Source of the DNA: Deltaproteobacteria bacterium
GTDB taxonomy: Bacteria > Myxococcota_A > Polyangia > Fen-1088
DNA length: 64,000 bases
Direction: 5' to 3'
NCBI GenBank assembly: GCA_033763315.1
Contig: JANRKS010000007.1
Location: 192,001 to 256,000 of the forward strand
The translations under genes and the position numbers were made by a program. The notes beneath the pieces are model-generated. The model was given only the letters and a program-made list of their open reading frames with translations, searched no databases and was not told where the DNA came from. Shown here piece after piece: positions 4,861 through 25,020 of the stretch (the stretch's first letter is position 1; the number at the start of each line of letters is the position of its first letter).

Positions 4861-4961
4861 AATTGGGGAATATCCCGGGCCATTTGCCGTAACAGCGGCG
4901 ATTCGGTGATCCAGTCAACGGGTGTACTTGAATCGTGAAGCGCCTGTGGTAATTGGGCTTC

Positions 4962-5867
4962 ATGTTTAAGTGGGCTTTGCTGGCTGGGGCCGCGTTGGTG
5001 TGGGCGTGCACGGTGCCTGCGGATGATCTTGGACCTGGTGTTGATGCCGACACAGGCACGATACAAACCGGGGGCACAGGCGGCGCACGCAGTGGGGGCG
5101 GCAACCAGGGCGGCAAGGGCATGGGGGGCGTCGTTGGCAGCGGGGGTCTAGCCGCAATGGGAGGGGCGCCCGGAATGGGTGGCGAGCTCGGCGGCGGCGG
5201 TGCCGCAGTCACAGGCGGTATCGGCGGCAGCGTTGCCACGGGTGGCACACCAGGTACAGGCGGCGTGGTTGCCACAGGGGGCACGCCCGGCACAGGCGGC
5301 AGCGTCGCCACAGGGGGCACGCCCGGCACAGGCGGCGTGGTTGCCACCGGAGGCACACCGGGCACGGGCGGCACCACACCAGTGTTGACCGACACCGCGC
5401 GCTTCAACTTCGAGACGAGCACACAAGGTTGGACCGATTTGGGCGTCGGCACCAGCCGGGAGCCCGGATTGGCCCCCGTTCGTTCATCCGATAGAGCCTA
5501 CGCCGGCGATTACAGTTTGCGGTATCCGATCGTCGTCACCAAGAACAACACCAGCGAACGCTTGGCTGGCGTGGTTGCCGGTGGCATCGGTGATTTGCCT
5601 CCCGGCAAGACCATCACGTTTCAGGTGTGGGTGCCGCCGGGGCATAAGATCACCACCTTGCAGGGCTTCGTGCAAACACGCGCCGCCAATTCATGGCAAC
5701 AAGATCAACGAACGGGAGAGCAAATCGGCACGGCCGCGTGGACGCAACTGAGCGTTCCCATTCCGCCATCGTTTGCAGGCCAAGATCCGCTTGAACTCGG
5801 CGTTCGCGTGACTGTGAACGGGCAGTGGTCAGGCGACGTTTACATCGATTCTGTGCGCGTGCAGTAG
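4962..5867 (+). CDS. Lipoprotein with Gly/Thr-rich linker and C-terminal carbohydrate-binding-like jelly-roll domain
   Basis: Lipobox-like VWAC; GGxVATGGTPGT repeats; FNFETSTQGW...VYIDSV CBM-like termini. Confidence 0.65.
   Translation: MFKWALLAGAALVWACTVPADDLGPGVDADTGTIQTGGTGGARSGGGNQGGKGMGGVVGSGGLAAMGGAPGMGGELGGGGAAVTGGIGGSVATGGTPGTGGVVATGGTPGTGGSVATGGTPGTGGVVATGGTPGTGGTTPVLTDTARFNFETSTQGWTDLGVGTSREPGLAPVRSSDRAYAGDYSLRYPIVVTKNNTSERLAGVVAGGIGDLPPGKTITFQVWVPPGHKITTLQGFVQTRAANSWQQDQRTGEQIGTAAWTQLSVPIPPSFAGQDPLELGVRVTVNGQWSGDVYIDSVRVQ
5223..5366 (+). repeat. Four 36-bp coding repeats (GG[S/V]VATGGTPGT)
   Basis: Seen in both DNA and translation. Confidence 0.9.
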
Positions 5868-5870
5868 CGA

Positions 5871-7961: not shown

Positions 7962-8038
7962 GAAAGCGCCAGACTATAGCCGCAAGAGGCGGTGCGAGCC
8001 CGGACGTTCGCACCGCAAGGCCTGCTAAGCTCGGCCGC

Positions 8039-8569
8039 ATGCCCGGCATTGACCCTTCACGCACGTTTACGCCGCTATCACTCGCCATTTTGACGGTTTC
8101 CGACACCCGCAGCCCCGCCGAAGATAGGTCGGGTGACACCTTGCAAGAGCGCGCCGTGACCGCCGGCCACCACGTGGTGGCGCGTGCGTTGGTCACGGAC
8201 GACAAAGCCGCGATTGAGCAACAGGTGCGTGCGTGGATTGCGGATCCAGCGGTTTCGGTGGTGCTGGCCACGGGCGGCACGGGCATCACGGGGCGGGATG
8301 TAACGCCCGACGTTTTCGCCGCGCTGTATGAAAAAGACATCCCTGGTTTCGGGGAGCTGTTTCGCTGGTTGAGCTACGGCAAGATTGGGCTCTCCACGAT
8401 CCAATCGCGGGCCAGCGCGGGGGTGAGCGGAGGAACGCTGTTGTTCTGCTTGCCCGGGTCACCGGGCGCGTGCAAGGACGCCTGGGACGATATCTTGGTG
8501 TTTCAGTTGGACAGCCGTTACCGGCCTTGCAACTTTGCCGAACTGCTGCCGCGTTTACATGAACGATAA
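8039..8569 (+). CDS. moaB: Molybdenum cofactor biosynthesis protein B
   Basis: LTVSDTR, TGGTGITGRDVTP, IPGFGELFR, LPGS and RPCNF motifs. Confidence 0.93.
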   Translation: MPGIDPSRTFTPLSLAILTVSDTRSPAEDRSGDTLQERAVTAGHHVVARALVTDDKAAIEQQVRAWIADPAVSVVLATGGTGITGRDVTPDVFAALYEKDIPGFGELFRWLSYGKIGLSTIQSRASAGVSGGTLLFCLPGSPGACKDAWDDILVFQLDSRYRPCNFAELLPRLHER

Positions 8570-8638
8570 CCACTTTGGTTTGAGCCGTCGGGGCGCCGCT
8601 CCTGTATTCTGGCGCCGGTCAAGGAATCGCTTCGCCTT

Positions 8639-10555
8639 ATGAAACAACTGCTGCAATCGAGTTTCGTGGTCTTGATGCTGGTGGTGTTGACGTGTTTGGC
8701 CGTGGTCAACACGTGTCAGCTCAACAACCTTGAAACGCAGGTGCTGCAAGTTCGCAAGGCGGTGGAAGAAGCCGGCAAGACGGGTGGGCACGCACAAAGC
8801 GCAGCGGGGCGGACAGACGACGCAGTTACGTCCGACGCCGAAGAAGCCGCAGCTCTGGCGGATCCCAACAACATATTGAAACGCGAGAACCGAAAGAAAG
8901 TCACGGCCGCACAGGTGGCGTGGGGCGGAACGTTGCGGCGGCAGGAGGGCCAAGATCCTCCAGGGTTCAACCGTTATGCGTCCAATAACGCCGCCGACTT
9001 GGCCGAATTCGTAAGGTACATGGGCGGTTACCTGGCGGAGCGTCATGTGGACGACCCAGACAAGTACGCGCCCCGGTTGGCGATCAAAATCACCACGCCG
9101 GACAATGGGCTCACCTATGACATCACCTTGCGTAAGGGTGTGATGTGGCCGGTGCCCGCCGTCGATTTTTCGAGCGGCCGTTACGATTGGCTCAAAAGCG
9201 ATCACGAAGTCACCGCGGATGATTTCGCCTTTGCGCTCGATATCATTGCCAATCCGCAGATCTCCGGCGGCGTGTCGGGTCTGCGCAATTACTTCGACGC
9301 GTTCAAGACATACGAAATCATCAACAAGCACCAGCTGCGTCTCAACTTCAAAGAACGGTTGTTCACCAATTTGGGAACCGTTCTTGAAGACCTTTTGCCT
9401 ATGCCTCGGTGGCTTTATATGTACGACGAAGACGGACGCAAGTTCGACAACGCCACGTGGGGCCTCAAGTTCAACGAACATTGGTTTAACCAGAAGTTCA
9501 TTGGCGTGGGCCCTTATAAATTTGTGGAGTGGGTGCCCGGTGTCCGCATTGTGATGGAGCGCAACGATCGCTATTTCGGTGAGCGGCCTGCGTTCGATCG
9601 AGTGATCACCTTGATCGTCAAAGATCAAACCGCGTTGCCACGTCGACTACGCGCCAAGGATTTGGACTACACGCACCTGCAGCCCGAGCAATACAGAACC
9701 GAGGTTTTGGAAGCCAAGGGCCCCATCTTGGGGCAAAAGGGAATCAAGCTGGGGCGAGTGAGGGAGCTCGGATATTTCTATCTGGGATGGAACATGGACT
9801 CGCCGATGTTTAGCGACAAGCGTGTGCGTCAGGCCATGACGATGGCGATGGATCGCGCATCGATTGTGAAGAATGTGTTCTCAGGGTTGGGCTCACTGAC
9901 CACAGGCCCCATCCCGTCTGCCAGCCCGTGTTACGACAAAACCATCAAACCCTGGCCTTACGATCTCAAGGCCGCCGCCGCCAAATTGGACGAAGCCGGA
10001 TGGAAAGACAGCGACGGAGATGGTGTGCGAGACAAGCTTGTGAACGGCAAACGGCAATCGTTTGAATTTCGCTTTGTCACGTATGGCAGCTCGAACGAAT
10101 GGACGACCGTGGCCAGCATCTATCGGGAAGCGCTGCTGCAGATCGGGATCAAGATGAACGCGCAGCCGCTTGAATGGTCCACAATGCTCAAGAAGTTAGA
10201 TGAAAGGGAATTCGACGCGTATTCCGCCGCTTGGGCCGTCGACTGGGACACCGACCTAATGCAGATTTGGCATTCCAAGGAAGCGGACCGGCCCAAAAGC
10301 TCCAACCGCATTGGATTCCGTAACAAAGAGGCCGATCGACTGGCTGAAGCTTTGCGCGCGGCGTTCGACCCGAAAGAGCGCGAAGCCTTGTGCCACCAAT
10401 TCCACCGGTTGGTGCATGAGGAGCAGCCCTACACTTTTATCTACGAGCGCGAGCGGCCGGTGCTCTATTGGGACTACATGAATGATCTCGAGTTTGCACG
10501 TGTACGCCCCCATAAAGATGTGCGCTTGTTTTCATTCAAGGAAGCCCGTCCCTAG
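8639..10555 (+). CDS. ABC peptide transporter substrate-binding protein (family 5)
   Basis: TPDNGLTYDITLRKGV, IGVGPYKF, DKRVRQAM and GWKDSDGDGVRDK motifs. Confidence 0.9.
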   Translation: MKQLLQSSFVVLMLVVLTCLAVVNTCQLNNLETQVLQVRKAVEEAGKTGGHAQSAAGRTDDAVTSDAEEAAALADPNNILKRENRKKVTAAQVAWGGTLRRQEGQDPPGFNRYASNNAADLAEFVRYMGGYLAERHVDDPDKYAPRLAIKITTPDNGLTYDITLRKGVMWPVPAVDFSSGRYDWLKSDHEVTADDFAFALDIIANPQISGGVSGLRNYFDAFKTYEIINKHQLRLNFKERLFTNLGTVLEDLLPMPRWLYMYDEDGRKFDNATWGLKFNEHWFNQKFIGVGPYKFVEWVPGVRIVMERNDRYFGERPAFDRVITLIVKDQTALPRRLRAKDLDYTHLQPEQYRTEVLEAKGPILGQKGIKLGRVRELGYFYLGWNMDSPMFSDKRVRQAMTMAMDRASIVKNVFSGLGSLTTGPIPSASPCYDKTIKPWPYDLKAAAAKLDEAGWKDSDGDGVRDKLVNGKRQSFEFRFVTYGSSNEWTTVASIYREALLQIGIKMNAQPLEWSTMLKKLDEREFDAYSAAWAVDWDTDLMQIWHSKEADRPKSSNRIGFRNKEADRLAEALRAAFDPKEREALCHQFHRLVHEEQPYTFIYERERPVLYWDYMNDLEFARVRPHKDVRLFSFKEARP

Positions 10556-10558
10556 CGC

Positions 10559-11980
10559 ATGCTCGCCTACGCGCTCAAACGCCTGCTGATGATCCCGCCC
10601 ACCTTCTTCATGGTGTCGCTGGTGATCTTCGTGGTGTTAAACCTGGCCCCGGGGCGGCCCGGCGAACAAGCCCAGTTAAGTGGCGAAAAAGCGGGCACGC
10701 AGCAACGCGAGAGCTACCGGATCTTCAAAGAGCAATTCAACCTTGATAAGCCCGTTTTGTTCAACACGCGCTTTGCGCTCACCGAAAGCGAAGTGAAGAC
10801 GCTGCTTGAAAATGCGTATGCACTGCGCCCCGCGACGAAAACGGCACAACGTCTGCACGCGCAGAACGAGCTTGAAGACACGGGAACTTACCTTGTGCGC
10901 CATTTGGTGTCGCTGCTTGGCCAGACGCCTGACGTGGCATTGGCGCGAGCCATCACCACGCAGCTCGTACAAGCCGCGCGTCGCCCATTGCGCCTCGACG
11001 CCCATGATCCAAACGCCACCGTCACCAACCGCACAATCGCCGCACAGAACGCCGAGTTCATGAATTGGACGCTGCCGGACAGCGCCACCGATGCCGAAGT
11101 ACACACCACGGCCGTGCGGTGGCAAAACTGGTGGCAGCGCAACCACGAAGACTTCGAATACGAAGGCAAGAAGCTGCGCCTGCTGTTCAGCGACACGCGG
11201 TTCTACAAATATTGGTCGAATGTGCTGCACTTTGATTTTGGCCAATCAACGCTCGATCGCCGCCCCGTGATGCCCACGATCGTATCGAAGCTGCGCTACA
11301 GCCTCAGCCTCACACTGCTCTCGGTTTTGCTGGCGTATCTCATCGCCATTCCGCTCGGCGTGTGGAGCGCCGTGCGACAAAATACCCGCGCTGATACCGC
11401 CATGACCGTGACCCTATTCGTGCTCTACAGTTTGCCCACATTCTTCGTGGGCACCGTGTTTCTACGTTTTTTTACTGAAGGCGATCCGGTGGCCTGGTTT
11501 CCCGCCGGCGATTTTGAATCCTACGACGCCGACCGCATGACCACCTTGCAACGCCTGCGCGACGTTGCTTGGCATTTGGTGCTGCCCATCGCCGCCTACA
11601 CGTTGGGCAGCTTAGCAGCCTTGTCTCGTTACGCGCGCACGGGCTTGGTGGATGTGATCCGCGCCGACTACATACGTACAGCGCGGGCCAAGGGCGTGCA
11701 CGAATTCGTGGTGATCGTAAAGCACGCAGCACGCAATGGCATGATCCCCATTTTGACGTTGCTTGGCAGCCTGCTGCCGGTCTTGGTTTCAGGCAGCGTC
11801 ATCATCGAGGTTATTTTCAACATCCCGGGGATGGGGCTTTACCTTTACGACGCGATTAACCTACGCGACTACAACGCCGTGATGGGCGTGCTTATGATGG
11901 CCAGCGTCTTAACGTTGTTTGGCATCTTGCTCTCAGATCTTTCATATGCGCTTGCGGATCCGCGCATCACTTTCGATTGA
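10559..11980 (+). CDS. ABC peptide transporter permease (OppB/DppB) with a large insertion
   Basis: DYIRTARAKG, HAARN and SYALADPRI motifs. Confidence 0.9.
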   Translation: MLAYALKRLLMIPPTFFMVSLVIFVVLNLAPGRPGEQAQLSGEKAGTQQRESYRIFKEQFNLDKPVLFNTRFALTESEVKTLLENAYALRPATKTAQRLHAQNELEDTGTYLVRHLVSLLGQTPDVALARAITTQLVQAARRPLRLDAHDPNATVTNRTIAAQNAEFMNWTLPDSATDAEVHTTAVRWQNWWQRNHEDFEYEGKKLRLLFSDTRFYKYWSNVLHFDFGQSTLDRRPVMPTIVSKLRYSLSLTLLSVLLAYLIAIPLGVWSAVRQNTRADTAMTVTLFVLYSLPTFFVGTVFLRFFTEGDPVAWFPAGDFESYDADRMTTLQRLRDVAWHLVLPIAAYTLGSLAALSRYARTGLVDVIRADYIRTARAKGVHEFVVIVKHAARNGMIPILTLLGSLLPVLVSGSVIIEVIFNIPGMGLYLYDAINLRDYNAVMGVLMMASVLTLFGILLSDLSYALADPRITFD

Positions 11981-15320: not shown

Positions 15321-17156
15321 ATGGCTACCGGCCCCGCTGGAAGCTCGTCCGTACGAGGAAAACGCTTTGGTCGCTACCGATTGCTAGAAGTCATCGGTCG
15401 CGGTGGCATGGCCGAGGTGTATCGTGCGGTGGCGCAAGGGCCGGGCGGTTTTCAACGCCAGTTCGTGCTCAAACGCATCCGCGCGGAGAAGGCTGAGTCA
15501 GCTGACTTCGTTGATATGTTCATCAACGAGGCGCGCATCTCGGCGATGTTGGAACATCCGAACATCGTGCAGGTCTACGATTTCGGCGAAGTCGACGGCG
15601 ATTACTTTTTGGCGATGGAGTATTTGCGTGGACGCGATCTGCTGACAGTGATGCGGCACTTGCGTTCAACAGGCCGCGATCTACCCATCGGGATCGCGGC
15701 GTTTGCGGTCAATGAAGTGGCACGCGGCTTGGCCTACGCGCATGGGCTTTCCCAGGCGGGCAAGGGGCTCGACATCGTTCACCGCGACGTAACGCCTTCG
15801 AACATCATGCTGCTGAAAACGGGCGGCGTGAAGCTGCTCGATTTTGGCATCGCCCGCGCGGCGATGAAACTGCGCTCCACAACACCAGCAAGTGGTTTGA
15901 TCAAGGGCAAATTCGCCTACCTTTCGCCTGAGCAAGTGCGCGGCAAACCCATTGATGGTCGATCGGATATCTTCTCGTTGGGCGTGGTGTTTTGGGAGTG
16001 CTTGGTGGGCCAACGGTTGTTCTACGACAACAACGATCTTCAGACGATGCGCAACATCGTTGAAAAGGACGTGCCTCCACCGTCTTTGGCGCGTCCTGGC
16101 CTGCCGCCAACCCTCGACGACATCGTGCTACGCGCGCTCGATCGAGATCCAGCCAGGCGGATTCCCTCGGCCCAAGCGTTGGTAGAGTCGTTAAGCGGTT
16201 ATCTCAGTGGCACGCGCTTTCAAAGCGATAGTGTCGCGCGGCTTTTGGAAGAGGTATTCGGCACAGACAGCTGGAATGAAGAGCCGCTGCCTGAGATGTC
16301 GATCACGCCCATTCCTCCGCCGCCGCCCACGCCGCGTTCGTTGATCGCGCAAGCACGAGCGGGGCGCACGACAGCTGAGCGTGCCGAAGAAGACGCAGGC
16401 TACAGCGTGGTGAGCTCCGTGCGGCCCCTGCCAGACCTCCGCCCCAAAACAAAGCTGCATGCCGCCGCAGCCGCCGTGGCTGGCACATTGATTCTAGGTG
16501 GTGCTGGTTTCGCGTTGCGATCCAAGCCTGCCCCGCACGCATCAACGCCCGTCGCTGCCGTGGCGCCCGCGGCGCCCAGCCCTGCCGTGCCCGTCCCCGC
16601 GCCAGCGGCCGCCGTGCCTGCCCCTGCGCCAGCGCCCGAGGCGCCCACGCCTGTCACGTCTCCTCCGTTGCCCCAGAAGCCAGCGCCGCTCGCTGTGGCA
16701 CACGCAACGAAGCCGGTAAACGCCGCGAAGCTCCCCGTGGCCGCCAAGGCAAAGTTGGCGCTGGCGCCGCCTGCACCCGCGCGACGTGCAGAAGATGTGG
16801 CCGCCGCTCGTGAAGCGCGCCTGCGCGGTTTGCAAGCGCTCGACAATGGGCAGATGCAACGAGCACGCACCGCCCTTGAAGCCGCCTTGGTCGACTTGCC
16901 GAATGACGCCGAGGTATTAAGCGGACTTGGCGAAGCGGCGTTCGAACTGGGTGACTACAAAGGCGCACGTAACTACGCGCGCCGGGCGATCGGCCTCGGC
17001 CCGCGCGCGATCAAAAACCACCTGCTGCTGGGCGACGTTTGTTTCAAAATGGGGCTGCTGCCAGAAGCGCTGGAAGCCTACAAAAGCGCGGCAGCGCTCT
17101 CACCAAACGACGCCAGCATCCGCACACGCCTTGCGCGCGTGGAAGCGAAGCTTTAG
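15321..17156 (+). CDS. Membrane Ser/Thr protein kinase with C-terminal TPRs
   Basis: GRGGMAEV, HRDVTPSN and DFG motifs; TM segment; Pro/Ala linker; TPR helices. Confidence 0.92.
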   Translation: MATGPAGSSSVRGKRFGRYRLLEVIGRGGMAEVYRAVAQGPGGFQRQFVLKRIRAEKAESADFVDMFINEARISAMLEHPNIVQVYDFGEVDGDYFLAMEYLRGRDLLTVMRHLRSTGRDLPIGIAAFAVNEVARGLAYAHGLSQAGKGLDIVHRDVTPSNIMLLKTGGVKLLDFGIARAAMKLRSTTPASGLIKGKFAYLSPEQVRGKPIDGRSDIFSLGVVFWECLVGQRLFYDNNDLQTMRNIVEKDVPPPSLARPGLPPTLDDIVLRALDRDPARRIPSAQALVESLSGYLSGTRFQSDSVARLLEEVFGTDSWNEEPLPEMSITPIPPPPPTPRSLIAQARAGRTTAERAEEDAGYSVVSSVRPLPDLRPKTKLHAAAAAVAGTLILGGAGFALRSKPAPHASTPVAAVAPAAPSPAVPVPAPAAAVPAPAPAPEAPTPVTSPPLPQKPAPLAVAHATKPVNAAKLPVAAKAKLALAPPAPARRAEDVAAAREARLRGLQALDNGQMQRARTALEAALVDLPNDAEVLSGLGEAAFELGDYKGARNYARRAIGLGPRAIKNHLLLGDVCFKMGLLPEALEAYKSAAALSPNDASIRTRLARVEAKL

Positions 17157-17161
17157 CGCGG

Positions 17162-18553
17162 CTAGGCCACCAACCCAGGTATGAGGCCCTTCGGCAGCGA
17201 AGGATCGCCGAAGTCATCGATGGGCCCGCCAGCGCTCGAACGCACGCCGGCGGCCGTGATCAGCGTGTTAAGCAACTTGTTGTTCATCACTTTGGGCAGA
17301 TCTAAGAATTGGCCTGTCTTCAAGTAGCCGCCCGCGCGGCCCGCAATGATGTACGGCACGTTCTTGTACTGATGGTATCCATCGCCCAGTTGGTTGGCCC
17401 ACGCGGCGAAGCCCAAATCCAAAAGGGATCCCATGGGCGTTTTTACCGCACCCATCTTGCCTATCAACATGCCGAAGTGACGCAGATGAATGCGATCAAT
17501 TTGATGGTGCATCAAGTCCGCCCCATCGATCGGCGTGCCTTCCGTGCCGTCGCCGTTGATGCGATGAGAAATGTGATGGTAGCTGGGCAGCTTCACGCCG
17601 TTGACCGTGTAGCCGATGCCATCCGTGCCATCGCCGTTCTGAATGAACACCACCCGGTGCTGACCTGAAGCCAACGCGAACACCGCCAGATCGAACTCAA
17701 GCGCCAAAACTTTAAGGCGGTTACCATCGGTGCCTTGCTGCCCATCCACCGACTTGAGGTCTGCCACGGTGGCTGCCGGGAGCTCTTTGACCATTTGCTG
17801 TTCGATGTCACGAACGCTGGCCAGGTGCATGCTGATGCGCTGACGATCGGCAGACGACAAAGTCTTGTCGCCCAGCAACACGTTCAACTCGCCTCGCACA
17901 AGATCATTGACGCTTCTGCGGCGGTTTAACACAAGCTCTTGAGCCGCCCCAGCGCCGCCCGTCATGCTGACGATCTTCGAATAAGCCGTCCATGGATTCG
18001 CTTCGGCTATGATCAGATCTTTTGTGCCACGAAACGAGATGTGATCGTTGATATAGCCATACTTTGGCCCCGCATAAAGCGCGAATGGCTCCTTGCCAGC
18101 CAGCGCCTGCGAGATTCGATAGTCAGCCGAAGGCCCCATCGCCAACGATTTGTTCTTGGCGGGATCCGCAGATACCTTGGCGGCCGTCAACAACTGATTG
18201 CCGCCACCGCTGTGGCCGCAGCCGTTGCCATCAAAGGCCATGCTAACGCCACGAATGATGTTCAGGTAATCGGCATACGCGGCCAGCTCGCTCACAGCGC
18301 GGCCCGAATCCGCCATCATCGATGCCGTGGTTAACGCGCCTGCCTTCGTGGGCCAAAAGCGCTCAGGTTCGTTGCCAAAACCAGGTTGCTGTTGCACACC
18401 GTTCATGTCCACCAGAAACACCGCGTAGCCCGGCGCGGGGCCCGCAGCGCGTGCGGTCTTTGGCATGAACGATTCAAGCAGTGGCAGGCCCAGGGCCACA
18501 CCGGTGCCACGCAGGAAACGACGACGATCCAAAACAGAATTCTTGATGGTCAT
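17162..18553 (-). CDS. DUF1552-family Tat-exported protein
   Basis: LDRRRFLRGTGVALGLPLLESF Tat signal; HLASVRDIE and YHHISH motifs. Confidence 0.85.
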   Translation of the reverse strand: MTIKNSVLDRRRFLRGTGVALGLPLLESFMPKTARAAGPAPGYAVFLVDMNGVQQQPGFGNEPERFWPTKAGALTTASMMADSGRAVSELAAYADYLNIIRGVSMAFDGNGCGHSGGGNQLLTAAKVSADPAKNKSLAMGPSADYRISQALAGKEPFALYAGPKYGYINDHISFRGTKDLIIAEANPWTAYSKIVSMTGGAGAAQELVLNRRRSVNDLVRGELNVLLGDKTLSSADRQRISMHLASVRDIEQQMVKELPAATVADLKSVDGQQGTDGNRLKVLALEFDLAVFALASGQHRVVFIQNGDGTDGIGYTVNGVKLPSYHHISHRINGDGTEGTPIDGADLMHHQIDRIHLRHFGMLIGKMGAVKTPMGSLLDLGFAAWANQLGDGYHQYKNVPYIIAGRAGGYLKTGQFLDLPKVMNNKLLNTLITAAGVRSSAGGPIDDFGDPSLPKGLIPGLVA

Positions 18554-18572
18554 AGGTTTTCCCTCGGCAGGT

Positions 18573-20294
18573 TTACAGGGCCGCCCGGAACATGAACGCT
18601 TCGCTCGTCACAAGCTCAAGCATCGATTCTTTGATGGCTTGCGACTGCGACAGCGAAGCGTTCGCCACGCGGTTCACAAGGAAGGCGTCGGCCTCCTCGG
18701 GGCGGCGTCCGAACAAATACTCAAGCCACGCGCCAGTCAAGCATTGGTGTACGCTTTGGCTTTTCGCCAGCAAGGCAACAAATTCGACGCTTGATTTCCA
18801 CGAGCGTTCGACGCCGTCAATCTCAAGGCTGCCACTGTCATCAATGGCCGCGCCATTGTCTAACGTGCGGTATTTCCCGATGGCATCAAACTTCTCGAAC
18901 GCAAAGCCCGCTGGGTTGATCAAAGTGCCGTGGCAAGGACCGCCGCACGTGCCCGGGCCCGTGTGAGCCGTCACGCGCTCGCGGTTGGTCTTGCCTCCCG
19001 TCGGGGGCACAGGGGGAACGTTCTTCGCCGGTGGTGGCAAGTTGGTACACATGACGTTGACGTGAACAAACACGCCTCGGTGAATCGAATCGATTTCCGT
19101 TCTGTGCGCGTTGGACGCCAAGAATCCGGGTTGGGTCAACAAGCCCGAACGTTGTTTGGCGTCAAGATCCACCTTCTTGAATTCGTCCGTGAAGGTTCCG
19201 GAAAGACCGTAGACCTTGGCAAGCCGCTGGTTCACAAACGTAAACGGAGCCGTCAATAGGTCTGCCTGGCTGCCCGTGGCCTGCGACACGATTTCACTGG
19301 TAAAGCGCAACGTTTCTTGCCGCATATCCGCGCCAATGCCCGCGACGAATTCGGGCACTTTCGCCGCGTCTTTGTCGATCCCGTCATAGGTGTAAAGCCG
19401 CAGCAACTGCGTGTAAAAGTCATTGATCGCGTCTTTGCCGCCCGTGCTTGAAAGCAAACGTGTGGCGTGTCTGCGTACCTCGGCGCGCACGTCCGCGACG
19501 TTGCCTTGCAATTTGCCGTCAGCCGCCGCCGCCAACAGTTCGCTGTCGGGCATCGTGTTGGCCAAGCCGTACGAGATCCGCGATGCCATCTCCCACCCAG
19601 TCAATGGCACCTTGCCATCCACAACCTTGTTTGTTTGGCCCACTTCAATGCGGTAAAGGAAATGCGGTGATTGCAGCATGGCCTCAATCACCGCACGCAT
19701 GCCCAACACGCTGGCGTCGCCCGCGCCATAGAGCGCTGACCCCTTTGCAAACAGGGCTGCGTAGCGATCCACTTCTTCGGTCGTCAGGGGCCGACGAAAC
19801 GCGCGGCGGCCAAAAGCTTCGATAAATGGCTTGGGCTGCACGGCACCCGTGGCACCACTTGGTTTCAATTTGGCCAACAAGGTGGCGTCCGATGACACCT
19901 TCGCGGCCAATGCCTCGGATGCGATTTGATAATCGTTAAACAAACCGTCCGTGACCTGCAGGGCGCCACCGGCGTTATCGAAACGGCCATGAGACGCGTC
20001 GCCGGTGAACGTTGAGGTCAGGCCAGGGGCCTTGGGCAACCCGAGCAGATCCCGCGTGGTGTTTTCCCACTGCTTGTGCGACAAGCGAGCAAACTTGGAT
20101 GTGGCCACAACCGCGTCGGCACCATCGGATGGCGCCCCGCCGCTGGAGGCTCCACCGCGTGCGCCGGAGCCGGTTCCACCTTGGCCCGTTGAGCCACCGT
20201 CATCAGCCTCGGGAGAATCACCTAAGCCGACGCTGCCCGTACAGGCGGAGCCCAGCCATCCCAAAACCAAAAGGGACACGTTTGCGTGCTTCAC
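18573..20294 (-). CDS. DUF1592/1588/1595/1587 multi-domain lipoprotein
   Basis: GSAC lipobox; RLSHKQWENT..DLL, RAFRRPL, LQSPHFLY, RSGLLT and CGGPCH..INPAGFAFE motifs. Confidence 0.88.
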   Translation of the reverse strand: MKHANVSLLVLGWLGSACTGSVGLGDSPEADDGGSTGQGGTGSGARGGASSGGAPSDGADAVVATSKFARLSHKQWENTTRDLLGLPKAPGLTSTFTGDASHGRFDNAGGALQVTDGLFNDYQIASEALAAKVSSDATLLAKLKPSGATGAVQPKPFIEAFGRRAFRRPLTTEEVDRYAALFAKGSALYGAGDASVLGMRAVIEAMLQSPHFLYRIEVGQTNKVVDGKVPLTGWEMASRISYGLANTMPDSELLAAAADGKLQGNVADVRAEVRRHATRLLSSTGGKDAINDFYTQLLRLYTYDGIDKDAAKVPEFVAGIGADMRQETLRFTSEIVSQATGSQADLLTAPFTFVNQRLAKVYGLSGTFTDEFKKVDLDAKQRSGLLTQPGFLASNAHRTEIDSIHRGVFVHVNVMCTNLPPPAKNVPPVPPTGGKTNRERVTAHTGPGTCGGPCHGTLINPAGFAFEKFDAIGKYRTLDNGAAIDDSGSLEIDGVERSWKSSVEFVALLAKSQSVHQCLTGAWLEYLFGRRPEEADAFLVNRVANASLSQSQAIKESMLELVTSEAFMFRAAL

Positions 20295-20298
20295 GAAC

Positions 20299-20330
20299 CC
20301 TAAGTGTTCACGAAGTCAGAATGTGGCTCA
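20299..20330 (-). promoter_or_regulatory. Putative ECF sigma target promoter TGAGCC-N17-ACACTTAGG
   Basis: Matches the motif upstream of the sigma gene (23878-23910). Confidence 0.6.
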
Positions 20331-20354
20331 ACCCCGGACGGGCTGATCGACAGC

Positions 20355-21032
20355 CTAGAGCCGCTCGAATTGGATATGGTCTATCCAAACATCGAACTTT
20401 TGGTCCAAGGCAACGTGGAATTGAACGATTTCGTCGAGTTTAAAGCTGGCTGGCGGCACGCCCCAGCCCATCTGTCGTAGATCCGCAAACGGCAAAACGA
20501 AGCGCTGCCAGCGACCCGTGACAGCCACACCCGTGCCAAAGTTATCAACGCAGGAGGTGCAGCGGCCGTTCCAAGCCGTCTCCATGGTGGACACGCTGGC
20601 TCTGAACGTGCGCGGACGTGTGTCGTTGGGCGACAGCGCCATATAAAACGAAATGGCGTTCCACCCGGAACCGTTGAAAGGCGAAGGATGCGGAGGGGCC
20701 GCGAAGAAAACACTGGCAGAAGCTCCCCACCCGGTCTGACCCGTCGTGGAAAGGTGCATCGCGTATTTGCCCAACGCCGCGCACGTGTTGGATACAGAGG
20801 CCGTCGGCTTGGCGCTGTCATCATCCCAAATTTCCCAATTGCCGCCCAAGCCGCCTGTACGGCCCGTCAGATTGTCGCCGTCTTCAAGATCATCGATGAT
20901 CAGATAAGCTTGCGGTTGCGGAGGCAATTGCACGTTCGGCAACGGACACGCGGGCGATGCTGTCAATGTTTCTACTGTCGATGGCTCGCAAGCCGCGAGG
21001 CACAACAGCCCCAGAATCACGACCGACCTCAT
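20355..21032 (-). CDS. Lipoprotein with CBM11/CIA30-like domain
   Basis: LAAC lipobox; IDDLEDGD, W..F.LPFADL.Q.GWG and WIDHIQF motifs. Confidence 0.65.
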   Translation of the reverse strand: MRSVVILGLLCLAACEPSTVETLTASPACPLPNVQLPPQPQAYLIIDDLEDGDNLTGRTGGLGGNWEIWDDDSAKPTASVSNTCAALGKYAMHLSTTGQTGWGASASVFFAAPPHPSPFNGSGWNAISFYMALSPNDTRPRTFRASVSTMETAWNGRCTSCVDNFGTGVAVTGRWQRFVLPFADLRQMGWGVPPASFKLDEIVQFHVALDQKFDVWIDHIQFERL

Positions 21033-22012
21033 CGCGATAGGGCCTCAATCGTTAGAACTGCCGCCGCGCCCAACTGCCCCACAGCGCCCACATCGCGTTG
21101 TGCATGAGCGATGCGGGTCTCGGAGAAATTCGCACCGCCGGATAGATCGAGTCCACCGCGCAACCACGAAGCCAGGTTCACGCCAGCCCGTGCATGACTG
21201 TAAATGCCAAGCTCCGTAAAGGTTTGGTCGCGCGCGATGACGGAGCTGTTGGCGAAGCCCTCCACTTGCCAAATCTGCCACAAAAGCCCCACACCCACGG
21301 CAGCAAACCAACGCGTAAACGTGTGGTCAACACGCACGCCCAAAGCCAGCCCCCAGGGCGTGGCCCGGGTGGTGCCCTCCAGGGTATGCAAGTCACTCGT
21401 TTGCCAGGGACCTTGCAGCAGCAACTCGGGGCCCACACCACGCCACAAAGACCAAGCCGCTTCCACGCGAAGAATAGGTACCGCAGGAAAGCCACCACGT
21501 TGTTTGAATACGCCGGCGCCAGCGCCCAAGAGGAACGCAGGCTTTGAAGCGGATGCCGGCTCAGCCGCGGCGGCCTGGTGAACATCGGCCACGGCCCCCG
21601 GTGATGTCGCGGATTGCCCCTGCAAAGCGGCGCGCACCAATTCCGTTGTCTGCAACACAACCATCGCCACATCCGGTCCATCAGGCCGCTCGTCGACCAC
21701 CAAGTTCCTCACCATCGGTCGACCATTGGCGGTTTCGTCCAACCACAGTTCAACGCCCTTGCCCGAGGGCAAAGCGCGCACAACCGACAAGCAACCGTCT
21801 TTGCGCGCAAGCGCGTCCAAAGGCTCATCCGAAAACGTTTGCGTTCGCGTGGCCAGGCCCGCCGTTGCAAGCTCCGCCAACAGCCGTGGCGAGAACATGT
21901 CTGCGCCTGCGCCTGTGTTCGTGATCAACAACACATCACAGCGCGGTTGCGCCCACGCATTCCCCGTACACAGGGATAAGGCCACCCACAAAAGCGCGCT
22001 ACGAGCCATCAA
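21029..22012 (-). CDS. Secreted or outer-membrane protein with probable C-terminal beta-barrel
   Basis: Signal peptide (…GNAWA|Q) and amphipathic beta-strand C-terminal half. Start re-set to TTG 22012 / ATG 22009. Confidence 0.55.
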   Translation of the reverse strand: MMARSALLWVALSLCTGNAWAQPRCDVLLITNTGAGADMFSPRLLAELATAGLATRTQTFSDEPLDALARKDGCLSVVRALPSGKGVELWLDETANGRPMVRNLVVDERPDGPDVAMVVLQTTELVRAALQGQSATSPGAVADVHQAAAAEPASASKPAFLLGAGAGVFKQRGGFPAVPILRVEAAWSLWRGVGPELLLQGPWQTSDLHTLEGTTRATPWGLALGVRVDHTFTRWFAAVGVGLLWQIWQVEGFANSSVIARDQTFTELGIYSHARAGVNLASWLRGGLDLSGGANFSETRIAHAQRDVGAVGQLGAAAVLTIEALSR

Positions 22013-22059
22013 CTTGGCGATTATACGCTGCGTGTGGCCTTCACAGTGGTGTGCAATGA

Positions 22060-23250
22060 CTATTGACTTAACAAACGTCTCGCCAAGCCCGCGTAAGGGC
22101 CATTCGGAAAGCGCGCCAAATAAGCGCGCGCGTCGTCGTGAGCCGCCGCTTGGCTGCCCGAATCTGTGAGGGACATTCGTTGGCGCGCCTGCAATAGCCG
22201 GCCCCACGCGTCTCCCACGAGAGCCCCCTGCGGGTTATCGGCCAAGTAGCGAGTGAAATGCAAAGCGGCGGCCTCATAGTTCTGATTTTGATCGAAGGCG
22301 AGACGTCCCAAATGAAAGGTCGCTAACGCGCTTTGAGGTGAGTGAGGAAAGCGTTTGTTCAAGATGCCCAAGGCTTGCTCGGCCGCCGTCACATCGCCCG
22401 CCAACCGGGCGGCGTCCCCCAGATCCAAAAGTTCGGCCGCGCTTGCTGTTCGGCAAAGACCCACAAATCCAGCGGCCTTCGCGTGAGCCAAAGCCTCTTG
22501 GTATCGCCCCGCCTTTGCCAATTGCCACCACAGATTGTTGGCCATCGCTACGCGCTTGGGGCTGGCGGGCATAGGCTCACTTTCTGGCGTACGCGTCGCA
22601 GCTGCTTTTGCCGCTTCAAATGCCACAGGTGCCTCATCACACAGGGCCACCAAACGCTGTGGCGCCACCATCTTGCGCGCGTCTTTTAAACACGTGCCCG
22701 TGACGGTCACAGATCCTTCCACCAACACCACTTCCATGCGCTGCTGCTCGGGCTGCCAATCCACTGAGAAACGCGTGCCCGTGACGTTGACGGCAAAGGG
22801 CCCCGCCTCCACGGCCCACGCACGGCCTTTGCCCTTTTGAATGGCAAGCGCAGCGTGCCCTCGATGCAATTGCACGCGCGCCTTGGTTTTTCCGAACTCT
22901 GCCACACGCAATTGGCTGCGCGGATCAAGCTCAATGCGGCTGCCTTCATCGAACCGCAATGGCAAGGGGCGCGCCTGTGTTTCGAGCAACGCGCCCACTT
23001 CACCGGGCACCTCGCCCGCCACAAAGCCAACGGTGGTGCGTGCACGCCGCAGCGGCATCCACGCCAACGCCAAAACAACAACCGTGGCGGCAGCGCCAAC
23101 CAAGACAAACGCCGGCGAACGCCGCACGGGCCGGTGAACTTGACGTAGAAAGGCCGCACGTCCCGCACGCGCTGCCTCTTCAGAGGGCACGGCCCTCGCC
23201 ATCGCGTCGTTCACCGCCCCACCCAGTTGCTTTAAGCTTTCAGTTCCCAT
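22060..23250 (-). CDS. FecR-domain anti-sigma with C-terminal TPR
   Basis: TM helix; FDEGSRIEL and VNVTGTRFSV (FecR); YLARFPNGPY TPR tail. Confidence 0.85.
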   Translation of the reverse strand: MGTESLKQLGGAVNDAMARAVPSEEAARAGRAAFLRQVHRPVRRSPAFVLVGAAATVVVLALAWMPLRRARTTVGFVAGEVPGEVGALLETQARPLPLRFDEGSRIELDPRSQLRVAEFGKTKARVQLHRGHAALAIQKGKGRAWAVEAGPFAVNVTGTRFSVDWQPEQQRMEVVLVEGSVTVTGTCLKDARKMVAPQRLVALCDEAPVAFEAAKAAATRTPESEPMPASPKRVAMANNLWWQLAKAGRYQEALAHAKAAGFVGLCRTASAAELLDLGDAARLAGDVTAAEQALGILNKRFPHSPQSALATFHLGRLAFDQNQNYEAAALHFTRYLADNPQGALVGDAWGRLLQARQRMSLTDSGSQAAAHDDARAYLARFPNGPYAGLARRLLSQ

Positions 23251-23864
23251 CGCTCCCCCTCTTCAATAAACGCGCGCAAGCGTGGGCTCTTGTGAGCCAC
23301 AGCTAAAAAGCGTGCTTCCGCCTTCGCCAAGCGCCGCTTGAACGTCGCCAAAGAAACCTTCATCGAGGCCGCAGCCTCGGCCAGCGGCAAGCCATCAATC
23401 AATCGCAGCGCAAAGGCCAAGCGCTCGTCCGCGGGCATGGTGTTCAACACTGCGTAAACCTCTTGCAACGCTTGTCTGACGTCATCGGCCACGGGCAAGG
23501 CGACTGTGGGTTGTACTTGCACGGGCGAGAACACCGAAAGCCACTTGCGGCGCGCCCGGCGGCGCAGACACGCCCGCGCCGTGAACACCGCAATCGTGGT
23601 AAGCCACGGACCGAGGCGCGACGGGTCGTCCAAGGAACGGATGTCAGCCAACGCATGAATGAACGTCTCTTGTAGAAGGTCGGGCGCTTCGGCATCGGGG
23701 CCCAACGTGCGCGTGATCGTGCGGTGCACGCCCTGGGCGTAACGGTCCCACAACGCAGCGGCCGCACCCGGGTGTCGCAGACGCAGCGCGGCCACGAGGG
23801 CGTGATCGTCCCCCGAAAAGCGCAGGGGTTCGACGTTGTTGGGGGTGTTGCGCGCCAAGGACAT
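23232..23864 (-). CDS. ECF RNA polymerase sigma factor
   Basis: DLLQETF and WLTTIA (region 2); R.AF.LR..DGL...EAA....SLATFKRRL (region 4). Confidence 0.92.
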   Translation of the reverse strand: MSLARNTPNNVEPLRFSGDDHALVAALRLRHPGAAAALWDRYAQGVHRTITRTLGPDAEAPDLLQETFIHALADIRSLDDPSRLGPWLTTIAVFTARACLRRRARRKWLSVFSPVQVQPTVALPVADDVRQALQEVYAVLNTMPADERLAFALRLIDGLPLAEAAASMKVSLATFKRRLAKAEARFLAVAHKSPRLRAFIEEGERWELKA

Positions 23865-23877
23865 AAGCTTAAACTGT

Positions 23878-23910
23878 CCTTAGTGTCCGCGAGCCGCGAA
23901 AACCGGCTCA
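23878..23910 (-). promoter_or_regulatory. Putative autoregulatory ECF promoter TGAGCC-N18-ACACTAAGG
   Basis: Immediately upstream of the sigma ATG; repeated upstream of the DUF1592 gene. Confidence 0.6.
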
Positions 23911-23932
23911 CCTCCCCTCTGACGGGGCGTCT

Positions 23933-24343
23933 TTAGGCTGGGAACGCCTCAGCGGCCGCGCTCAGCCGTGCCAATTCGTCGGCCTGGATCTCACGCTCGC
24001 CCATGAAGGCAATGCCCACCACCGCACGCACGCCGCCTTGCGCGTCGTGAATCGGTATCGCCACGGCGGCGTTGGCGTTCACCGCTTTGGCCCCTGGACG
24101 CACGTCACCTGAGGCGTCGTCTTTGAGGTTGCACGTTTGCACGGGCTTATCGCGTTCGAAGGCCAAACCCGCCATGCCTTTGCCAAATGGGATCACTTGC
24201 GTCACCTCGACGACCTTAGGTGGAATGTTGACGGAGGCTTGCATGCGCAACATCTGGCCGTCCCGCACGTGCACGGTGCCTGCAACGCCGCCATGGCTTG
24301 TGAGAAATGACGACAGCCATGCATTGGGATCGAAGGTGCTCAT
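23933..24343 (-). CDS. Stand-alone GAF domain protein
   Basis: IPFGKGMAGLAF...PVQTCN and AVAIPI..VRAVVG motifs. ATG at 24343. Confidence 0.8.
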   Translation of the reverse strand: MSTFDPNAWLSSFLTSHGGVAGTVHVRDGQMLRMQASVNIPPKVVEVTQVIPFGKGMAGLAFERDKPVQTCNLKDDASGDVRPGAKAVNANAAVAIPIHDAQGGVRAVVGIAFMGEREIQADELARLSAAAEAFPA

Positions 24344-24393
24344 GGCCTGGCAGTTTGACACAAAATCGCAAGCCGCTGCTATGGTCGTGGCGC

Positions 24394-25020
24394 GTGGCCC
24401 AGCCAACAAACACTCCCAAGAGAGAATGGCGAAAGATCGTGGCTGTGGTGCTGGCCACACTGGCGATCCCGATCATTCCTTTCCTCGTGGTGGGCGAACT
24501 GCCGGGACAACAGTGGCTAGAAGGCCACAGCGCGCGTGGCTTGGGTGTGGGCGGCACCGGTGCGGTTTTGTTGGCGATGGATGTGCTTCTGCCGATCCCG
24601 TCGAGCCTCGTGGGCACGCTCATGGGTGCGCGGTTGGGGGTTGCCGCGGGCTTCGCTTGGGTGGCTGCGGGACTGATCGTGGGTCATCTGATCGGCTTCG
24701 CGCTCGGGCGTTTGTGGCCCGCGCGGTTCGCGCCCACTGTGGCACAAGCGCCCACGGGTCTTGCGGTATTTCTTAGCCGCCCGGTGCCCGTGTTTGCTGA
24801 GGCCGTGGCCATCGCGGCGGGTGCGGCTCGCTTGCCGCTTGGCACATATGTGTTGTGGTGCGTGTCAGGTGATGCGCTTTACGCGCTGGTGTTGGCGGCC
24901 AACGGCGCGCAGTTTTTACCGGAAAACATGGTGGTGTGGGCGTTGTTGCTGCCGATGGCTTTGCCCGTGATTTCGTGGCTGGCGTGGCGCGTGTGGCAAC
25001 GTCGCAAACGCGCAAATTGA
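24394..25020 (+). CDS. DedA/VTT (SNARE-associated) membrane protein
   Basis: DVLLPIPSS and SRPVPVFAEA..IAAG motifs; multiple TM segments. Confidence 0.75.
   Translation: MAQPTNTPKREWRKIVAVVLATLAIPIIPFLVVGELPGQQWLEGHSARGLGVGGTGAVLLAMDVLLPIPSSLVGTLMGARLGVAAGFAWVAAGLIVGHLIGFALGRLWPARFAPTVAQAPTGLAVFLSRPVPVFAEAVAIAAGAARLPLGTYVLWCVSGDALYALVLAANGAQFLPENMVVWALLLPMALPVISWLAWRVWQRRKRAN

Follow-up and report, generated by a model that had tools for sequence, protein, structure and literature searches.

A candidate sigma-controlled envelope-signalling cassette with a predicted promoter shared by its DUF1592/DUF1552 genes in a myxobacterial genome

We analyzed a 64,000-nt stretch of contig JANRKS010000007.1 (the window), which belongs to a 7.63-Mb genome described as that of a soil myxobacterium. 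Between positions 17162 and 23864 lie six minus-strand genes, arranged head to tail, that encode an extracytoplasmic function (ECF) sigma factor, a protein with a FecR domain and tetratricopeptide repeats (TPR), a barrel protein, a lipoprotein, a DUF1592 protein and a DUF1552 protein, in that order (Table 1). An initial annotation of the window had listed these co-oriented genes and had pointed to a shared motif directly upstream of the sigma gene and of the DUF1592 gene; all six genes are present, and both copies of the motif lie exactly at 23910-23878 and 20330-20299. We read the locus, with a probability of roughly 0.7, as one copy of a six-gene envelope-signalling cassette in which an ECF267-like sigma factor, paired with a barrel-linked anti-sigma factor, would use its own promoter and that of the DUF1592/DUF1552 genes. 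The promoter and its predicted regulon, judged from comparative sequence evidence, are very probably right.

Table 1. Genes and predicted promoter elements of the cassette, with the upstream motif regions of carbohydrate-binding module (CBM) lipoprotein genes in related loci (positions are those of the window unless a locus is named; aa, amino acids; nt, nucleotides; pLDDT, predicted local distance difference test score)
Feature	Position	Strand	Details
ECF sigma factor	23232-23864	-	210 aa; Pfam Sigma70_r2 1.8e-11, Sigma70_r4_2 3.7e-10, Sigma70_ECF 2.2e-5
FecR-domain and TPR anti-sigma factor (predicted)	22060-23250	-	396 aa; 19-nt overlap with sigma gene; Pfam FecR 8.8e-13, TPR_16, YfiO
Outer-membrane partner (predicted), signal peptide and barrel	21029-22012	-	327 aa; model pLDDT 84
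CBM11-like lipoprotein	20355-21032	-	225 aa; lipobox LAAC; 4-nt overlap with barrel-protein gene; model pLDDT 66
DUF1587-DUF1595-DUF1592-DUF1588-DUF1585 protein	18573-20294	-	573 aa; GTG start; Pfam, five domains, 4e-11 to 2e-31
DUF1552 (HXXSHH) protein	17162-18553	-	463 aa; Pfam 5e-43
Predicted promoter before sigma	23878-23910	-	-35 TGAGCC(G), 18-nt spacer, -10 (G)ACACT; TGAGCC-N18-ACACTAAGG
Predicted promoter before DUF1592	20299-20330	-	TGAGCC, 17-nt spacer, (A)ACACT; TGAGCC-N17-ACACTTAGG
Upstream motif regions of CBM-lipoprotein genes in relatives	L022:6712-6880, L019:11562-11730, L021:8409-8580, L023:11569-11740

The two copies of the motif lie within the 68-nt gap upstream of the sigma start and the 60-nt gap upstream of the DUF1592 start. 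The distance from the end of ACACT to the start codon is 17 nt for sigma (ATG) and 8 nt for DUF1592 (GTG); given the latter distance, the DUF1592 transcript is possibly leaderless. The spacers of the two copies are unrelated and the similarity consists of two short blocks at a fixed distance, so the motif is bipartite rather than a stretch of repeated DNA. Its full form, TGAGCC-N17/18-ACACT[AT]AGG, has exactly two matches in the genome, one before the sigma gene and one before the DUF1592 gene of the window, where base composition leads to an expectation of about 0.05 genome-wide. None of 100 dinucleotide shuffles of the window contained any full-motif match. The shorter TGAGCC-N17/18-ACACT, which the initial annotation had put forward for a genome scan, has four genomic matches, about the chance level, so the signal is carried by the extra bases and by position.

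We also trained a weight matrix solely on 20 orthologous sigma promoters from other genomes and scanned 15.27 million positions of this genome with it. The sigma site ranked first and the DUF1592 site tenth. Seven of the top ten sites fall inside open frames of 478-3485 aa; the three outside such long frames are the two window sites and the promoter of a paralogous sigma gene.

The element is widely conserved among orthologous sigma genes. A first ortholog set, obtained through relatives of the barrel protein in 40 related genomes, had TGAGCC-N17/18-ACACT upstream of the sigma gene in all three cases with upstream DNA. A scan by sigma alignment, with one genome per species, gave 32 loci, of which we kept 28 (L013-L040, carrying 30 sigma genes); these have 44-56% identity, are all from Myxococcota/Polyangia and include Sorangium, Minicystis, Polyangium and Byssovorax. 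The Sorangium sigma orthologs are 44-51% identical to the window sigma and share its gene layout. We dropped L041-L044 as partial or distant (Nonomuraea, Rhodanobacter and a 2.7-kb contig), and we note that L008, L010 and L011 are the same records as L022, L018 and L034 and so are not independent. TGAGCC occurs upstream of 29 of the 30 orthologous sigma genes, the exception being that of L035. The exact form TGAGCC-N16-19-ACAC precedes 20 of them, in 19 loci, and a further nine have TGAGCC(G) with a variant -10 at the same distance (GACTTC, GACTCC, GTCTTC and others), mainly in Sorangium, Polyangium and Minicystis. Throughout, the spacers are not conserved, the orientation is single, the element ends 8-90 nt before start codons and it is kept across genera upstream of sigma. 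This combination is the signature expected of an autoregulated ECF promoter, and it supports the proposal of the initial annotation that sigma is transcribed from the motif as a promoter of its own, with putative autoregulation.

Paralogs within the same genome also bear on the second promoter. The genome has 12 sigma paralogs, nine FecR/TPR paralogs and 119 DUF1592-like loci. Six of the nine sigma-FecR/TPR modules have a same-strand DUF1592 locus within 6 kb downstream, five of them at 1.8-2.5 kb; such a downstream locus is found for 4.4% of random positions, which gives a binomial P of 5.7e-7 for six modules in nine. Pfam places DUF1592-type and DUF1552 genes downstream of modules C1b and C31. 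Upstream of the paralogous sigma genes the -35 element TGAGC[C/T/A] is kept throughout and the -10 differs.

In four cassettes (C7, which is the window cassette, C1a, C1b and C31), TGAGCC-N17 directly precedes the DUF1592 gene. The -10 elements before sigma and before DUF1592, respectively, are GACACT and AACACT in C7, GACAGT and GACAGA in C1b, GTCCTA and GAACTA in C31, and GCCCTT and GCCCCT in C1a. When all four were compared with all four, the mismatch counts on the diagonal (1, 1, 2 and 1) were the minimum of each row and column, with off-diagonal counts of 2-5. Of the arguments available for each sigma reading both promoters, this co-variation is the strongest.

Second copies of the element were also sought in the ortholog loci. 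For each locus we counted TGAGCC-N16-18 elements whose -10 differed at no more than one position from that of the sigma promoter in the same locus, leaving out L027, L035, L036, L037 and L038, in which the rule found no -10 or no TGAGCC. The search gave 19 matches against 2.35 expected from dinucleotide shuffles, which reduce to 15 distinct sites other than those of sigma, spread over 10 of the 23 loci. Here too the -10 elements change together, with sigma and second-copy pairs of GACACT/GACACT, GACTTC/GACTTC and GTCTTC/GTCTTC. The genes behind these sites vary. The second copy precedes DUF1592 and DUF1552 genes divergent from sigma in L015, and in L027 the DUF1592/DUF1552 pair follows a lipoprotein gene and has a weaker matrix site (18.7 bits). 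Elsewhere it precedes a lipoprotein with a GDSL esterase (GDSL lipase) domain and an AraC regulator (L014, L032), an unassigned lipoprotein together with an FG-GAP lipoprotein (L034), a lipoprotein (L039), or lipoproteins of about 200-350 aa without a Pfam family that come directly after the barrel gene (L026, L029, L033 and, twice, L040). In L017 a weaker matrix site of 18.6 bits lies upstream of an unassigned frame, which is followed by a GH127 glycosidase. DUF1592/DUF1552 as a predicted sigma target, also proposed in the initial annotation, therefore recurs locally, in the window, in L015 and L027 and in three paralogous cassettes with co-varying -10 elements.

Tandem copies lie in two of these loci. 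The two sites in L040 (11242 and 12108; Sorangium sp. So ce131) belong to two small lipoprotein genes that stand in tandem behind the barrel gene and are nearly identical; each has its own copy of a clade-variant promoter, TGAGCCG-N-GGACTTC. In L014 (CAWCMR010000008.1), positions 4900-10900 hold two complete sigma/FecR-TPR/barrel modules in tandem, which looks like a recent local duplication, and three homologues of the CBM lipoprotein lie within 16 kb.

We considered and rejected ECF control of DUF1592 genes in general. TGAGCC is present in the upstream regions searched for 20 of the 119 DUF1592 loci, approximately the chance level (18 occurrences expected), so the link is specific to the sigma/FecR-TPR cassettes. 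With many DUF1552 partners, 119 DUF1592-like loci are a very large expansion for a 7.6-Mb genome (examples are C16:165947-167470 and C34:302996-304483), and among them only a few, beside sigma/FecR-TPR modules, have the TGAGCC element. Near the end of contig C21 (4509-4560, minus strand), a DUF1592 gene is preceded by TGAGCC-N17-GCATGA and has its start codon within the -10 region; the search for sigma paralogs found none on C21.

Other paralogous sigma genes have related elements as well. In module L047 (C2:495138 and 498052, plus strand), TGAGCA-N16/17-GACACT precedes sigma and recurs upstream of the gene for a 482-aa lipoprotein that has no Pfam family; a related divergent element (C2:494113, minus strand) points toward a second ECF sigma gene, and a type I phosphodiesterase/nucleotide pyrophosphatase gene follows. 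The sigma promoter of L048 (C8:86080, plus strand) reads TGAGCC-N17-GTCTCC and has a divergent twin 100 nt away (85977, minus strand) that points at a 193-aa lipoprotein gene.

The proteins encoded by the six genes suggest how such a promoter might be controlled. The sigma factor, at 210 aa with sigma-2 and sigma-4 regions only (Pfam), fits the definition of ECF (group IV) sigma factors. Its neighbor has the plan of a single-pass anti-sigma factor: approximately 45 cytoplasmic residues, one membrane helix at about 46-65 (read from the sequence), a periplasmic FecR domain at 98-181 and CpoB/BamD-like TPR at about 240-396. The FecR domain (PF04773) scores 49 bits against a cut-off of 24, and this part of the protein also has a profile match to a putative anti-sigma structure. 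In the profile search, the best solved relative of the TPR part was CpoB (YbgF; 6g5s, E 2.1e-5), with a weak match to BamD. The FecR-TPR gene adjoins sigma in 27 of the 28 ortholog loci and usually overlaps it. FoxR self-cleaves at a Gly-Thr pair, G191-T192, according to PMC11637429; a Gly-Thr pair in the FecR domain of the window protein, G158-T159 in its own numbering and a possible counterpart, is invariant in 16 sequences.

The third gene product, which the initial annotation had called a small beta-barrel outer-membrane protein, is predicted to be just that. In the model, residues 155-327 form an 8-stranded barrel resembling NspA (Z 17.2), OmpW (17.1), OmpA (16.7) and OprF (16.4). Foldseek E values go down to 4.7e-8; the likeness is at the fold level, and the protein has no Pfam match. 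Residues 22-135 form a periplasmic alpha/beta domain, joined to the barrel by a linker, that matches the anticodon-binding domains of class II aminoacyl-tRNA synthetases (Z 9-10.3). This fold is also that of the TolB N-terminal domain. TolB was not among the 50 fold matches listed for the protein, which are barrels and synthetase domains, and there was no Pfam TolB_N match. The third genes of C1a and C31 are homologous to the barrel protein (hhalign 96%, E 3.5e-9, and 90%, E 1.5e-6); the third- and fourth-gene proteins of the sister cassettes have no Pfam match.

We modeled residues 70-396 of the anti-sigma factor together with residues 22-160 of the barrel protein, giving each a 16-row alignment of our own making; the calibration counts below are therefore rough. 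Three runs gave ipSAE interface scores of 0.80, 0.80 and 0.79, and the best of three controls gave 0.00. The mark that the pair passed is attained by 116 of 157 solved complexes and by 2 of 215 mismatched pairs. The pLDDT of the partners was at least 67, and at least 72% of contacts were common to the runs. In the predicted interface, the concave face of the TPR (247-250, 279-285, 316-321, 343-354 and 385-389) meets two helices plus a loop in the N-domain (42-52, 96-98 and 116-131). Invariant residues within it are R282, R316, G350 and R351 of the anti-sigma factor and R43, A46, E47, G52, G97 and E124 of the barrel protein. We know of no solved complex of the TPR/barrel-N-domain kind, so a pass from model memory is unlikely. 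On the strength of these models, we consider it somewhat probable that the TPR domain docks on the N-domain of the barrel protein.

No TonB-dependent receptor accompanies the cassette, as the initial annotation had observed. The genome has ten PF00593 matches; the window contig holds none of them, and none comes as near as 15 kb to any of the nine modules.

The product of the fourth gene was proposed to be a CBM lipoprotein, and its model agrees at the level of fold. Residues of about 40-225 are predicted to form a beta-jelly-roll that is CBM11-like (1v0a, Z 16.1, root-mean-square deviation 2.9, 157 of 170 residues aligned, 17% identity; Foldseek 6r31, E 6.5e-9). The next fold matches were CIA30, a complex I assembly factor (Z 15.4), CBM30 (14.1), CBM4/22 (about 12) and many other CBMs. 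By sequence the protein is not a member of the CBM11 family, with no Pfam family at E 0.01 or better. Its gene is adjacent in 10 of the 28 ortholog loci, where it is usually convergent or divergent. The CBM-lipoprotein genes of relatives have a sigma-70-like upstream motif, resembling TTGAA(G/C)-N~18-(GCGC)TAGTCT, and no ECF motif. The motif looks like a housekeeping promoter, which suggests that the lipoprotein is constitutively expressed in those genomes and would make it a constitutive accessory rather than a regulon member. Sister cassettes have different lipoproteins in this place. The fourth genes of C1a, C31 and C5 form one family of their own (BLASTP 6e-60 and 2e-23), that of C1b is yet another lipoprotein, and alignment of the CBM lipoprotein with the fourth gene of C31 found no relation (hhalign 0.4%). 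Atlas look-alikes of the C1a/C31/C5 family include GH5/GH39 clusters (TM 0.74-0.76), a lead only, with the nearest rows unnamed. The fourth position is thus the variable one.

The last two proteins are adjacent in the genome and both have export signals: a lipoprotein-type signal with a Gly/Ser-rich linker in the DUF1592 protein and a twin-arginine signal, RRRFLRG, in the DUF1552 protein (both from the N-terminal sequence). The five domains of the former and the HXXSHH domain of the latter all exceed the curated Pfam cut-offs. Sequence searches found no solved relative of either protein, and an Atlas search with DUF1552 returned DUF1552 clusters only.

Taken together, the sigma/anti-sigma pair fits the description of group ECF267, and we read the system as a cell-surface-signalling variant without a TonB-dependent receptor. 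The sigma factor would be held at the inner membrane by the single-pass anti-sigma factor, whose TPR may hold the periplasmic alpha/beta domain of the 8-stranded, OmpA-like barrel to form an envelope-spanning complex. The lipoprotein in fourth position would most likely supply signal specificity. A signal at the outer membrane would alter the barrel-TPR contact, after which the anti-sigma factor might be inactivated by regulated proteolysis, by analogy with FecR/FoxR. The freed sigma would then transcribe from TGAGCC-N17/18-(G/A)ACACT, both its own operon, in a positive feedback, and the DUF1592/DUF1552 operon. The nature of the signal, the proteolytic release of sigma, the direction of regulation and the leaderless DUF1592 transcript are parts of this scheme that we infer. 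That the signal is a specific glycan or other polymer ligand is a tentative idea, and a general envelope-integrity signal seems rather unlikely.

The initial annotation had likewise proposed trans-envelope signalling, with the barrel and the CBM lipoprotein sensing a ligand. The promoter and target, the missing TonB receptor, the barrel and the CBM11-like fold all held up under analysis; for ligand sensing, possibly of a glycan, the evidence is indirect. In relatives the gene of the CBM lipoprotein is usually transcribed separately.

Several observations weigh against the cassette as we have described it. At the promoter level, most sigma promoters have a G and a T-run after TGAGCC, both of which are missing from the DUF1592 site; with the ortholog-trained matrix, this site falls 9 bits short of the score of the sigma site. 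L020 has a DUF1592/DUF1552 pair divergent from sigma with a poor -10. A tblastn search placed DUF1592 close to only 3 of the 28 ortholog loci from other genomes, so this output is typical of the cassettes of this genome and not of the whole orthologous group. The barrel gene follows FecR in just 15 of 28 ortholog loci, the barrel protein was detected in only 6 of the 40 related genomes and not in either of the two same-genus genomes, and the third gene of C1b matches it weakly (hhalign 9%). The cytoplasmic segment of the anti-sigma factor, at about 45 residues, is short for a classical anti-sigma domain. Finally, the docking is a model confidence built on 16-row alignments of our own making.

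The best-surviving alternative is a more specific form of the same explanation and not a contradiction of it. Here, the CBM-like lipoprotein would bind a polysaccharide at the surface or in the periplasm and signal through the barrel, and DUF1592/DUF1552 would be glycan-related effectors. CBM11, CBM30 and CBM4/22 are among the top fold matches of the lipoprotein, the fourth gene varies in otherwise similar cassettes, the C1a/C31/C5 family adds its GH5/GH39 lead, the predicted outputs in relatives include GH127 and GDSL esterases, and a sigma-70-like motif, not an ECF one, is as expected for a constitutive sensor. The same lipoprotein has a model pLDDT of only 66 and no Pfam match, however, and CIA30, an assembly factor and not a lectin, nearly equals CBM11 as a match. 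The CBM gene is also missing from 18 of the 28 ortholog loci, C1b has a fourth gene that is not CBM-like and does not belong to the C1a/C31/C5 family, and DUF1592/DUF1552 have no assigned activity. We regard glycan sensing as a possibility to be held tentatively.

Alternatively, the barrel could be a tether, with the TPR monitoring its periplasmic domain as a report on outer-membrane assembly, spacing or damage; lost contact would trigger sigma, and the lipoprotein would be an accessory. The TPR relatives CpoB and, weakly, BamD are envelope-coordination and outer-membrane-assembly proteins (Pfam YfiO is in keeping with this), the barrel, which belongs to the OmpA/OmpX/OmpW type, has no evident domain for a ligand beyond its membrane part, and all predicted outputs are exported proteins or lipoproteins. 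PMC11637429 adds that the FoxA transducer shields the FoxR anti-sigma factor from proteolysis until signalled. Nine paralogous modules with insulated -10 elements and differing fourth genes nevertheless fit many specific signals better than one general signal. General stress sigmas also usually have large, dispersed regulons, whereas the matrix brought up no other credible intergenic site in this genome. We consider envelope-integrity sensing unlikely.

Control by phosphorylation would make the sigma factor depend mainly on the Ser/Thr kinase with TPR repeats at 15321-17156, and the FecR-TPR protein would not be its anti-sigma factor. The kinase gene is convergent to the DUF1552 gene and ends 5 nt from its stop. 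The description of ECF267 (PMC7826278) mentions one to three kinases nearby and doubts that the FecR-like protein targets this sigma. We rejected the kinase as a conserved neighbor: just 4 of the 28 ortholog loci contain a kinase domain, one is found close to 3 of the 12 sigma paralogs, and with 115 kinase-domain matches in the genome such adjacency is expected by chance. The FecR-TPR gene, for its part, follows sigma in nearly every locus. Kinase control is very improbable. Least credible of all is that the motif is another regulator's site, or chance or duplicated sequence: its -35 TGAGCC is unlike the common ECF "AAC" type, but its bipartite form with non-conserved spacers of 16-18 nt, its single orientation and distance of 8-90 nt from start codons, its conservation across genera upstream of sigma itself, the joint change of -10 at sigma and target copies in paralogs and Sorangium-type orthologs, and the shuffle controls all argue against this.

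We therefore return to the cassette with its own predicted promoters and compare it with known systems. ECF267 in the ECF classification 2.0 (Casas-Pastor et al. 2021, PMC7826278) comprises sigma factors of Sorangium and Chondromyces with an anti-sigma factor that is FecR-like and fused to TPR at +1 and, in the neighborhood, kinases and no TonB-dependent receptor. That entry reports no conserved promoter and no outer-membrane partner. The window shares the Polyangia host, FecR-TPR at +1 and the lack of a FecA-like or other TonB-dependent receptor with this description, and one kinase gene lies nearby. It differs from it in the conserved -35 TGAGCC(G) with a clade-specific -10, in the barrel partner and local targets, and in that the kinase link is not conserved. 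The literature searched contained no other relevant paper on ECF267 and passing mentions of DUF1592/DUF1552 in five papers; the main text of PMC5615132 has no occurrence of DUF1552.

The FecI/FecR/FecA and FoxI/FoxR/FoxA systems likewise combine an ECF sigma, which controls adjacent genes (as predicted here), with a single-pass anti-sigma factor that has a periplasmic FecR domain, and a dedicated outer-membrane protein that, in our system, is predicted to contact the anti-sigma factor at its C-terminal periplasmic domain. In place of a 22-stranded TonB-dependent transducer, the partner here combines an 8-stranded OmpA-like barrel and an alpha/beta domain that is not of the STN type, so there is no evident input of energy through TonB. 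The anti-sigma factor ends in TPR (the C-terminal 150 residues) with no STN match in Pfam or in the profile search. The sigma is predicted to be autoregulated, and its predicted targets are DUF1592/DUF1552 genes and not an iron-uptake operon. In Pseudomonas aeruginosa, PUMA3 (VreA/VreI/VreR) is a signalling variant whose receptor component is similarly not a full TonB-dependent transporter; it differs from the cassette in that VreA is a periplasmic signalling-domain protein without a barrel and VreR is a standard FecR-type anti-sigma factor without TPR. From Tol-Pal, CpoB (YbgF) is the best solved relative of the anti-sigma TPR. In the cassette, the CpoB-like domain belongs to an anti-sigma factor and the TolB-N-like domain to an outer-membrane barrel protein, both within a predicted signalling system.

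The sensing modules of SigI/RsgI pairs are CBMs or glycoside-hydrolase (GH)-like domains, a parallel to the CBM11-like lipoprotein and, if the GH5/GH39 lead holds, to the sister-cassette family. The polysaccharide biosensors of Clostridium thermocellum, as PMC10328401 describes them, also comprise multiple paralogous sigma/anti-sigma pairs per genome, each autoregulated with its own targets. They differ in being SigI-type and not ECF, and in belonging to a Gram-positive bacterium with no outer membrane, where the sensor is fused to the anti-sigma factor; here, it would be a separate lipoprotein acting via the barrel.

As far as comparison of sequences can establish it, what is new is a conserved promoter code in an ECF group reported to have none, together with a dedicated small-barrel partner, a variable lipoprotein slot and DUF1592/DUF1552 as a recurrent output. 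The ECF267 entry would accordingly be revised, with "promoter motifs not conserved" corrected and a motif, a partner and targets supplied. FecR-type signalling is thought to depend on TonB-dependent transducers, and a small-barrel/TPR partner would widen the known routes across the Gram-negative envelope. Among exported protein families without an assigned function, DUF1592/DUF1552 are some of the largest in Planctomycetota and Myxococcota, and a dedicated, predictable sigma/promoter switch would allow their induction and study. Paralogous sigma sets with a common -35 and a private -10 are also natural orthogonal parts for gene circuits.

More speculatively, these cassettes could form a new, TonB-free class of cell-surface signalling in which a small OmpA-like barrel, through a TolB-N-like periplasmic domain, docks on the CpoB-like TPR of a FecR-type anti-sigma factor, a swappable lipoprotein (CBM-like, or of the C1a/C31/C5 family with its GH-like look-alikes) gives each cassette its ligand specificity and a private -10 insulates at least four to six cassettes, each switching on its own DUF1592/DUF1552. 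DUF1592/DUF1552, with 119 loci here and abundant in Planctomycetota and Myxococcota, would in that case be an inducible, substrate-specific effector system for the capture or processing of extracellular polymers.

In the region 16900-24200, we found no sigma-70-type promoters, and intrinsic terminator-like sites were at chance level (10 compared with 9.4 expected). The best of these is a GC-rich hairpin with a T-rich tail (16962-16983, minus strand), approximately 180 nt past the DUF1552 stop and within the 3' end of the convergent kinase gene, though such sites occur at chance frequency overall. At the other end of the cassette, a gene for a small GAF-domain protein (23933-24460, minus strand) terminates 22 nt ahead of the -35 of the predicted sigma promoter.

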